A DNA stretch of 64,000 nt from assembly GCA_047967505.1 (NCBI GenBank), contig CM106538.1; one strand, given 5' to 3'. Below are positions 702 to 2,808 of the stretch, piece after piece (position 1 is the first letter of the stretch; every line of letters starts with the position of its first letter). The notes beneath the pieces were generated by a model. That model was not told the DNA's origin, did not search any database, and saw only the letters and a list, made by a program, of their open reading frames with translations. The stretch comes from Dipteris shenzhenensis. Taxonomy: Eukaryota. The translations under genes and the position numbers were made by a program.

Positions 702-2808
702 TTATATTTGGGGCTCTCTTAGGACCCAACGCCTTCCCTGTTTGACTCTATGTTGCAACCAAAGCGCAACCCCTTGGCTCCCTATTGAGGACTTCCAAGC
801 AACACATCTCCTTGTCTTCTTGACATGTTGAACCGCTTTTGTGGGACTTAAGACCTCTACCTTATTGCGCTTGAGAGTCCTAGCCTCTAGACATCTATAA
901 AACCAATCGAACATTTTGTATAGTATATTGCTTCGCGCAATACTACCCCCCATGCCTTGTAATTTTGAAATGTACTACAAATCAAGCTTCACATCTGCCG
1001 CGAATTGCTACTTTGAGAGCAAAACTATGGACAAAGCTTGATGCATTTATAAAGTTGCTTAGATAAGGTAAAAAAGATGAGCTTTATTATGAGAGATTTA
1101 GGACAACATTGGGAGAATCCATATCATTGATGGTAGAAGCATGGGGGGAGTCACATATTACACATTACATGGTAATCCTCCTTAGGTTCAAATTTTGTGC
1201 TTTAAACTTGAGTCAGTTTATGTTTCTAATACAATGTTTTTCTTTACAGCATATTCTTTGCACACATGCACCATGGTTTGTGGAGTAATGGGGCCCTTTG
1301 TCCATTTGGAATACTCAAGGACTAGAGAAATTGCACTACAGAGCAAAGGTAGCAAATCACACAGAGCTTTCCAGTACTCCCAACCTAGGGTGCTTTGAGC
1401 CAATGTATGTTTTTCTTTATCAGCATTGTGGTTGAACAAGAACCTCCTTGCCTTTCCTCCACCCATGGACACTTTAGTAGGAAGATTTTGTGTCTTTCCT
1501 AATTGTTTCTTGTCCTAATTAAGCTTCACATTGCCTTCGTGAAGTCCCATTAATGAGAGTAGTTCTTCAGCTTTTGCAATGCATTGTGTAGATACTTGAT
1601 GTGGCCTCAAATTCCAAGCATAAACTAGATGGAGATAGAGTAACTTATCAAGTATACATAGTTCAGCATGCAAAGTACACACGTGTACCCACTCCAATGG
1701 AATTGGTAGAATGGGATCCCACTTAGGATCCTTTTTGTGATGATCAGGGGTTGTACTTTGGTTGCAAGAAAGGATGCCATTTTCCCAATATAGGCTTCCC
1801 TTTTGCATCTTCTAAGAGTGGGTGCAATACAAGCCTGTCCATTTTGCATCTACACTTGTGTCACAACCATACAAGCACTTGAGGGTCTTCAAATCACCAG
1901 CTAGATGCCATTCAACTTGAAACATTCCATGCACATCCACTATTAATGTTTGCCTTACCTCTTGTCTTCGAATAATCGACGGGATGCCGGTTCTCTCCAA
2001 AACCCACTTCAATGTCTCGTGGCACTCCTTTGGGGTCTCAAAGGCTGCAAGCCACCATATGTCCTTCTCAAATTGGACTAAGAAACCCTACTCAACTTCC
2101 TCATCCCCTTGAGCAAATGCAAGGCATCATTCATAATACAAATGCTCACCCTCTCTAGCTTGTGCGCTTTTACTACAATTGAGCTTCATCCATTTTTATA
2201 ACAAATACTAGCTTACCATCTGTACAATGAAAGAGAAATACAGTAAGGATATAGAAATGAGAAGAAATAAAGTTGAATGTGAAGAGGGAATTTCTCTTAC
2301 CTTCTTCTCTCATCCCATAGAATTTGACCATGGCTCTCTGCAAATTCTCTACATCCATGTAAACAATATTGAAAGCATTCATCTCAAATGTTTGGATGCC
2401 AGATTTCTTTTTACTCTTCCAAGTCATTATGCCACTTACACAATGGTATCCTCCAAGCTTTTCTCTAGCACATTGGTTTGTTTCTTGACGTGCAAGCCTT
2501 ATAGACCATGGTGTTGGCAATGTCATTGTAGATATCTTATACTTTTCCTCCATAGCAGACCTGAAAAATTTAAAAACAAAGTTGTAAGCTTCACGACTTA
2601 CACCAGCAACATCACAAGCTCCAAGCACCTCCTTTGCTTGCACGAGGCCCTTGAAATCCTTCATTACCTCTCTAGCAACTTGTTCACATAGCCCTTTTTG
2701 TTTAGGGTCCTTCAACACTTTTGTAACATCACTTGGCTTTATTAAACTTCTTAGAACATATGAAGGATCACTATCATCCATTTCCATTGTTCCCATCACA
2801 TCCTCCAT
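702..2808 (-). pseudogene. Degenerate, intron-containing DDE transposase of the RAG1-core/Transib/Chapaev (CMC-related) type; the segment 979-1348 is inverted onto the + strand
   Basis: Minus-strand motifs in order: LVFVIKMDE (first D, after GT-AG intron 2220-2300), EWHLAGDLKTLKCLYG...GLYC, PILPIPL..VCTLHAEL. On + (inverted piece): WGESHITHYM|HILCTHAPWF..WGPLSIWNTQGLEKLHY, with intron 1172-1249. Minus strand resumes with VVHFKITRHGG...DWFYR. Stops and frameshifts are present. ORF fragments at 3048-3533 may be its N-terminus. Confidence 0.65.

Follow-up and report, generated by a model that had tools for sequence, protein, structure and literature searches.

The CACTA-Mirage-Chapaev-Transib (CMCT) clade of DNA transposons, as set out by Kojima in 2025, comprises EnSpm/CACTA, Mirage, Chapaev, and Transib, together with Plavaka, ESTA, and Lanisha, and its signature is given there as a DDE triad, two cysteines, and three histidines, with a C(2)C and an H(3-4)H motif lying between the second Asp and the Glu (PMC12730594). 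The same account describes the usual ends of these elements as 5'-CA..TG-3' and their target site duplications (TSDs) as 2 to 5 bp long (PMC12730594). Kapitonov and Koonin (2015, PMC4411706) described a complex N-terminal zinc finger, the Chapa domain, in Chapaev, Chapaev3, and TransibSU. Lanisha was presented as a new, previously undescribed cut-and-paste superfamily in the moss Ceratodon purpureus, where it accounts for 5.8% of the V chromosome and is deposited as MT647524 (Carey et al. 2021, PMC8245031). Here, we analyzed a stretch of 64,000 nucleotides of contig CM106538.1 (Dipteris shenzhenensis, assembly GCA_047967505.1), hereafter the window, in which an original prediction made from the sequence alone had proposed a spliced transposase fossil related to Transib and Chapaev. 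Positions 702 to 3542 of the window very probably hold the dead remains of a transposase gene from a cut-and-paste DNA transposon, which its fold and motifs place in the CMCT clade, in a lineage apart from CACTA.

When a core query (window 1518-2087, minus strand, with one TAG read as X) was compared with 1.84 billion representative proteins using phmmer, 162 proteins were matched at an E value of ≤1e-3, 91 at ≤1e-10, and 9 at ≤1e-30, with the best match at 1.2e-50. A full-length relative of 813 amino acids, P0174, was found through a cluster look-up; its residues 330 to 813 recovered 36 near-full-length relatives when used as a query, a 54-sequence profile search recovered 104, and 33 related metagenome loci were found. 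Intact members are ~800 to 900 amino acids long and begin with an N-terminal motif, followed by a coiled coil and a helical stretch, after which comes a complete RAG1/Transib-type core. Given that the core query has these relatives and that full-length members tile the window in protein order by tblastn (Table 1), the motifs are not chance occurrences, and the locus is a real gene remnant. All five motif strings quoted in the original prediction are present in the window. The 221-residue open reading frame (ORF) of the locus, used as a query against longer proteins, retrieved no homologue, and an ESM Atlas look-up with it returned only chance-level rows below 0.9.

The family is eukaryotic and unrecognized by Pfam. 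Among 10 translations derived from the window (two pieces and eight ORFs, six of which cover the gene and two of which are overlapping alternative frames), no Pfam family was matched at an E value of ≤1 beyond two sub-threshold chance matches on the N-terminal ORF (KTSC, E of 0.06; DUF5796, E of 0.26). In an hmmscan of 19 relatives, none reached a Pfam gathering cutoff and only weak coiled-coil noise was seen, and no relevant precomputed Pfam domain was attached to the 36 and 104 relatives. Species-bearing names among the relatives are limited to three "hypothetical protein" models from the fern Adiantum nelumboides, which look chimeric. A few other relatives carry the label "hypothetical protein" in JGI metagenome records, and two short eukprot fragments in the relatives' clusters are labeled Prorocentrum and Pyramimonas. 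The original prediction had measured the lineage against the transposons of angiosperms; nothing shows the plant to be an angiosperm, the fern gene models being the only named relatives.

We modeled P0174 with AlphaFold2 without templates, using an alignment of 54 sequences (mean predicted local distance difference test score, 83.8; predicted template modeling score, 0.69). The model has a coiled coil and helices, including a long helix at residues 84 to 168, before the core. When it was searched against the PDB with Foldseek, all of the matches listed at an E value of ≤1e-3 were RAG1 or RAG complex, HzTransib, or amphioxus RAG1-like chains (5zdz_C at 9.1e-11, 6pqx_A at 1.8e-8, and 6b40_A at 8.7e-8 being the best; range for RAG1, HzTransib, and BbRAGL, 9.1e-11 to 4.3e-6), and the first other family in the list was the P element transposase, at 4.8e-3. 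Alignment with VIA-align gave Z scores of 20.0 for RAG1 (6dbo_A; root mean square deviation, 4.8 Å; 463 residues aligned; model residues 253 to 801), 18.8 for HzTransib (6pqx_A; 4.1 Å; 417 residues of a chain of 480), and 18.4 for BbRAGL (6b40_A; 5.3 Å; 463 residues). The corresponding values were 10.1 for ISCth4 (6.2 Å; 263 residues), 10.1 for the P element (6.0 Å; 348 residues), and 7.4 for Hermes (6.0 Å; 312 residues).

The likeness to RAG1, HzTransib, and BbRAGL runs from the dimerization/DNA-binding domain to the C-terminal domain (Z scores of 18.4 to 20.0 over 417 to 466 residues), with model residues 249 to 804 aligning to mouse RAG1 458 to 1008 and to HzTransib 21 to 478. We take the RAG1 stretch from ~460 to 1008 to comprise the dimerization/DNA-binding, pre-RNase H, RNase H, ZnC2, ZnH2, and C-terminal domains. 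In an ESM Atlas look-up with P0174 residues 330 to 813, the nearest entries were RAG1 fragments and unnamed cnidarian and arthropod clusters (cosine of 0.96; 193 to 202 shared features), and these RAG1 fragments carry the Pfam domains RAG1_RNase_H, RAG1_ZnC2, and RAG1_ZnH2. Structure prediction and a profile search had been suggested as checks on the original proposal; the former returned an RNase H fold and a RAG1 core match, at a Z score of 20.0 for the P0174 model.

In the P0174 model, D379 lies in β1 (residues 371 to 382) and D476 directly after β4 (residues 465 to 475), C496 and C499 follow D476, C556 and H559 open the helix following β5, and H726, H729, H734, and E753 lie in helices. Conservation of these residues was counted among 299 fetched proteins. 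The first Asp was found in 139/140, the second in 198/223, and the Glu in 19/22; in the zinc-binding module, C496 was conserved in 181/208 and C499 in 179/206, and the Cys and His of the CxxH motif in 176 and 177, respectively, of 183. Two β2 residues are near-invariant (E390, 153/156; N398, 153/171). The H(4)H motif was present in the 17 loci with both flanking motifs, based on a search pattern that allowed H or Y in the first position and H or G in the last. Taken together, the model and the residue counts support the presence in this family of the whole predicted RAG1/Transib core, namely, an RNase H fold with D/D/E plus a C(2)C, a CxxH, and an H(4)H motif, each lying at the place that this type of fold predicts.

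Several observations weigh against our assignment of the locus. When the family profile was searched against all PDB chain sequences at an E value of ≤10, no RAG1, HzTransib, or BbRAGL chain was retrieved, and the three chains that did appear were unrelated (E values of 0.18 to 1.1). Likewise, no Pfam RAG1 domain was found at an E value of ≤1 in the 19 relatives. The P0174 model stands in for the window copy, with which identity is 30 to 46% per tblastn segment, and the solved RAG1 structures were part of the training of AlphaFold. Not all family members have the zinc site, since the divergent subgroup formed by P0112, P0152, and P0155 is without CxxC and HxxxxH. In window 1-9000, a search for inverted termini turned up nothing convincing, only low-complexity CCCTCCC/GGGAGGG pairs, and a search for inverted termini or TSDs at 15 related loci with flanks gave only short, chance-level matches. 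Finally, the family was likened to Lanisha by published description.

The members of the divergent subgroup retain D, D, E, and CxxH, and the joint loss of CxxC and HxxxxH, seen in three clusters only, is consistent with a single zinc site made up of these four residues, as in RAG1.

The fold results raise the question of whether the element belongs to the Transib superfamily as strictly defined (Transib, TransibSU, Chapaev, or Chapaev3), which would make it an animal-type lineage in a plant. Consistent with such a membership, the RAG1, HzTransib, and BbRAGL fold matches lie ~9 to 10 Z units above those of the next families, the language-model neighbors are RAG1 and unnamed animal clusters, and the order of the motifs is the same (D, D, E, C(2)C, [C/D]xxH, and H(4)H). 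However, we consider it unlikely, because the profile and Pfam searches described above retrieved no RAG1-type chain or domain; the family is not a close Transib by sequence. The family also differs from RAG1, HzTransib, and BbRAGL in that sequence similarity is undetectable with HMMER, in its extra N-terminal region of ~250 residues, which has a coiled coil but lacks a zinc finger, in its plant and algal hosts, and in its conserved intron inside the H..H motif. No CxxC was found in the 359 to 487 residues before the first Asp in 9/9 full-length members, which have 5 to 10 cysteines in all, so the complex N-terminal Chapa zinc finger is absent; a RING finger is likewise absent. Chapaev and Chapaev3 were grouped with Transib by Kapitonov and Koonin, and the family differs from both in its absent Chapa domain and in its hosts, the species in that paper's figure legend all being animals (PMC4411706). 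The original prediction had also likened short motifs of the protein to strings that it quoted for Chapaev3.

Moreover, the motifs themselves are common to the whole CMCT clade (PMC12730594). The family combines an RNase H fold bearing a DDE triad with C(2)C, H(3-4)H, and a third His, and since these are the protein features of the clade, the motif order is a clade feature rather than one specific to Transib or Chapaev. Of the relationship to Transib and Chapaev that had been proposed, the RAG1/Transib core fold, the DDE triad, and the CxxC/HxxxxH pair thus stand, whereas the motif set proved to be CMCT-wide, and neither a Chapa finger nor a sequence link was found. We set Novosib aside, given that it is not among the lineages listed with the C(2)C and H(3-4)H motifs in the CMCT account (PMC12730594).

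CACTA/EnSpm elements are common in plants, share the clade-level motif set of DDE, C(2)C, and H(3-4)H (PMC12730594), and are present in the same window, so that the locus could be read as a very divergent CACTA/EnSpm transposase from the ordinary plant repertoire. Pfam Transposase_21 identified the CACTA pieces of the window at E values of 4.8e-35 and 5.7e-10, and DUF4218 identified one at 2e-23, in the same Pfam library. We know of no solved CACTA structure, so the fold search cannot separate CACTA from the family, a point that counts for a CACTA origin. Nevertheless, neither Transposase_21 nor DUF4218 matched the gene pieces or the 19 relatives at an E value of ≤1, hhalign gave a probability of 0.2% between the family profile and the CACTA ORF of the window, and no CACTA cluster was among the Atlas matches listed for P0174 residues 330 to 813. 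These results make a divergent CACTA transposase quite unlikely and uphold the earlier view that the locus is not an ordinary plant CACTA element.

The original prediction had also set the lineage apart from the usual angiosperm transposons. A plant lineage of the CMCT clade, Lanisha, was already proposed in moss in 2020, reportedly by Maumus, McDaniel, and Carey in Repbase Reports. Like the family described here, Lanisha is a cut-and-paste lineage of a land plant in which C(2)C and H(3-4)H follow the second Asp and precede the Glu, and it falls in the CMCT clade apart from CACTA (PMC12730594). The family described here is probably either Lanisha itself or its sister lineage, and the chance that the two are one and the same lineage appears about even. 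In that case, our analysis supplies a structural description, of which we found none in the literature searched. A more tentative alternative, which we consider possible but rather doubtful, is that the family is not Lanisha but a separate, unnamed deep branch of the RAG1/Transib-CACTA clade in ferns, green algae, and other protists, with a complete RAG1-type core, an ancient H..H intron, and a subgroup that lost the zinc site. Such a branch would constitute a further CMCT lineage and, being non-animal and matching solved RAG1 and Transib structures throughout the core, provide an outgroup with which the origin of the RAG1/Transib core could be rooted.

The extent of the remnant was established by tblastn of two full-length relatives, P0197 and P0193, against the window (Table 1). 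The gene runs along the minus strand except for one flipped block, and it extends ~730 bases farther upstream than the span of 702 to 2808 originally proposed, which therefore fell short. Beyond that span, positions 2838 to 3542 encode the N-terminal ~240 residues, as shown by tblastn and translation. The window copy retains D, D, and E of the catalytic triad as well as CTLH and HILCTH. No further copy or shared end of window 1-4500 was found elsewhere in the 64-kb window. On the minus strand, the linker between the coiled coil and the 221-residue ORF has no recognizable "GGG..KRR" like that of the relatives examined, and "EFMEDV" is immediately preceded by TACTTTAG, which resembles a splice acceptor; the linker may represent a second intron or a deletion.

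Table 1. Segments, motifs, and intron of the transposase gene remnant in the window
Feature	Position	Strand	Basis
P0197 residues 3-143	3518-3075	-	tblastn, E 1.8e-23
P0197 residues 186-371	2817-2176	-, frame -2	tblastn
P0197 residues 371-389	2176-2120	-, frame -1	tblastn
P0197 residues 398-656	2093-1320	-, frame -3	tblastn
P0197 residues 638-768	968-1354	+	tblastn
P0197 residues 776-799	950-867	-	tblastn
P0193 residues 821-892	932-714	-	tblastn
N-terminal part: "HLDLWVDGNLYP" motif at 3348-3383, then coiled coil	3075-3542	-	tblastn and translation
Poorly aligned linker, coiled coil to 221-residue ORF; frame change, several stops	2839-3074	-	No high-scoring segment pair for P0197 residues 144-185
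221-residue open frame: helical DNA-binding/pre-RNase H, then β1 with first Asp	2176-2838	-	ORF list, tblastn
IKMDE, first catalytic Asp codon	2188-2190	-	Motif coordinates in window
β2 segment in another frame, with KLERVSICIMNDAL at 2120-2161	2120-2175	-	tblastn, P0197 residues 371-389, frame -1
Rest of RNase H domain and zinc-binding module	1358-2093	-	phmmer, tblastn
LAGDLK, second catalytic Asp codon	1893-1895	-	
GLYC; CxxC in the family, first Cys replaced by Gly in the window copy	1824-1835	-	
CTLHAEL (CTLH at 1668-1679)	1659-1679	-	
KVSMGGGKARRFL, within the RNase H/zinc-module segment	1437-1475	-	
Inverted block of ~395 bp: LRAKLW..EAWGESHITHYM / HILCTH..WNTQGLEKLHYRAK	960-1355	+	tblastn, P0197 residues 638-768
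ITHYM and HILCTH, H(4)H zinc ligands with intron between	1157-1171 and 1250-1267	+	
Phase-0 intron of 78 nt, GT..AG, between HYM and HIL codons	1172-1249	+	Sequence
WNTQGLEKLH, catalytic Glu codon 1325-1327	1307-1336	+	
C-terminal tail: GMGGS 942-956, FDWFYR 894-911, GRRWVLRE 714-737	702-956	-	tblastn, P0197 and P0193

To distinguish damage private to the window copy from features of the family, contigs of three public runs (X1, X2, and X3), two of which come from one organism, were aligned to window 600-3600. These runs gave 26, 14, and 6 contig pieces, respectively, with 90 to 99% identity to the window copy, and 8 of the 26 X1 pieces were at least 99% alike to it; the family is multicopy in what is, judged by such sequence identity, probably the same species as that of the window. 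The X1 contigs total less than 2 million letters yet span most of the element, which suggests that its copy number is high. A GGAGGG tract directly adjoins the upstream end of the gene, and the X1 contig depth reaches up to 244 at 3529-3600.

The sister contigs carry opposite-strand joints between 1354 and 916/950 (X1 and X3) and between 1357 and 1000/1002 (X2), which restore a colinear gene order. This colinearity of the sister copies at both junctions marks the inversion as a peculiarity of the window copy or its assembly. The original prediction had recognized that the segment with the H..H motif and the Glu was flipped, and both the plus-strand tblastn match and the sister contigs bear this out, with the breakpoints shifted slightly from 979 and 1348 to ~957-967 and 1354-1357. 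One X1 contig has a joint from 2068 to 3507 with a short side of 22 nt; we considered it as an internal-deletion derivative, and it was too weak to count.

The sister copies also explain the other lesions. At position 1814, they have G (CAG) in place of the window's TAG stop at 1812-1814, and at position 1286, all three runs have C (CAA) in place of its TAA stop at 1286-1288. Further in-frame stops of the window copy lie at 3276-3278, 3048-3050, and 2173-2175, the last of these owing to a frameshift. Relative to the window, the sister copies are 2 nt shorter at 2174 and carry an additional A at 2114, and frame arithmetic shows that these two indels bring the three minus-strand pieces into a single frame. 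This result bears on the two GT-AG introns that had been proposed: the one at 1172-1249 stands, whereas ~2092-2178 is not an intron, because it encodes the conserved β2 strand KLERVSICIMNDAL in another frame, broken by two private frameshifts. Among substitutions between the X1 contigs and the window, 45 have G or C in the sister copy and A or T in the window (26 A>G and 19 T>C), versus 18 in the opposite direction, a transition bias that would fit deamination decay of a silenced, methylated repeat. The window copy is unable to make transposase: it has five or more in-frame stops and two or more frameshifts, it has lost the first zinc-binding Cys, and its private ~395-bp inversion places the H(4)H/Glu segment on the opposite strand. 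As a dead transposon copy, the locus is not expected to have a function.

Since an intron divides the H..H motif of the window copy, we surveyed the same site in the 33 related metagenome loci, in 17 of which both flanking motifs were recognizable. An insert of 65 to 96 nt was present at this site in 13 of the 17, beginning with GT in 13/13 and ending with AG in 12/13, and it was absent from the remaining four (L001, L002, L003, and L012). Judging from these genomic sequences, the intron after HYM is real and conserved, and the inserts at the same site across related loci show that its position is old. In 79 of the 99 predicted relatives that reach this position, a V (GTN) directly follows HYM, implying that gene callers read on into the intron. 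The X3 contig, which we can only guess to be RNA, retains the intron.

The conserved intron position is more usual for host genes, and it could be taken, along with the conserved catalytic residues and the TIR (terminal inverted repeat) and TSD searches that found neither, to mean that the family is a domesticated host gene family and that the window locus is an ordinary pseudogene. We regard this as very unlikely in view of the copy numbers. The related loci include 22 of 33 in a single assembly, as many diverged copies that are 64 to 84% identical at the DNA level; the 90%-identity clusters of relatives hold 24 to 121 members each, many of them fragments; and several variants of 90 to 99% identity occur in the runs that hold the window copy, one of which comprises only ~2 million letters. 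In addition, 14 of 223 relatives have Asn at the second Asp, as expected of decaying repeats. Given that neither TIRs nor TSDs were found, the mobility of the element is deduced from copy number and homology only.

Two candidate ends were examined among the related loci. One, a 16-nt inverted pair in L008, is a putative end. The L006 and L007 metagenome copies, which are 99.7% identical, diverge at positions 3076 and 2363, respectively, after a polypyrimidine-TAG site and nine shared bases; we rejected this divergence point as an element end because it directly follows a splice-acceptor-like site. The fork instead suggests alternative downstream exons or an assembly fork.

Release of DNA through a hairpin on the flanking DNA has been demonstrated for HzTransib and RAG. 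By analogy, dimers of active members of the family described here would bind the terminal inverted repeats, introduce nicks where the element ends, and free the element via a hairpin on the flanking DNA, after which integration would produce a short TSD. The family provides a concrete protein with which to ask whether such elements also cut by hairpin formation, and its predicted structure, which ties it firmly to the RAG1/Transib core, extends the range of lineages with this architecture to plants and algae. Public assemblies contain the family in abundance, yet it has no Pfam domain, and since its members are unnamed or labeled "hypothetical protein," annotation will miss them or call them host genes. 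The family therefore deserves a profile and a name in annotation pipelines.

Several other repeats were observed in the window. A large inverted duplication pairs 19861-34253 with 54126-39808 and 36206-38360 with 62122-59518, in six megablast pieces with 91.5 to 96% identity. Its arms contain a piece of an OPR-like gene (Oxidored_FMN) at 26593-27435 on the minus strand and 50225-50743 on the plus strand, and the CACTA pieces are also located there, with Transposase_21 at 32794-33324 (minus) and 40734-41474 (plus) and DUF4218 at 42467-42889 (plus). GA-rich and GT-rich low-complexity tracts occur at 3560-4030 and at 24300-26100, the latter interrupted by a 100-N assembly gap at 25819-25918. A tandem array at 11856-16358 consists of units of ~0.7 to 1.4 kb in both orientations that are 80 to 90% identical, and these units hold long TA/CA-type microsatellites that give rise to spurious long ORFs.

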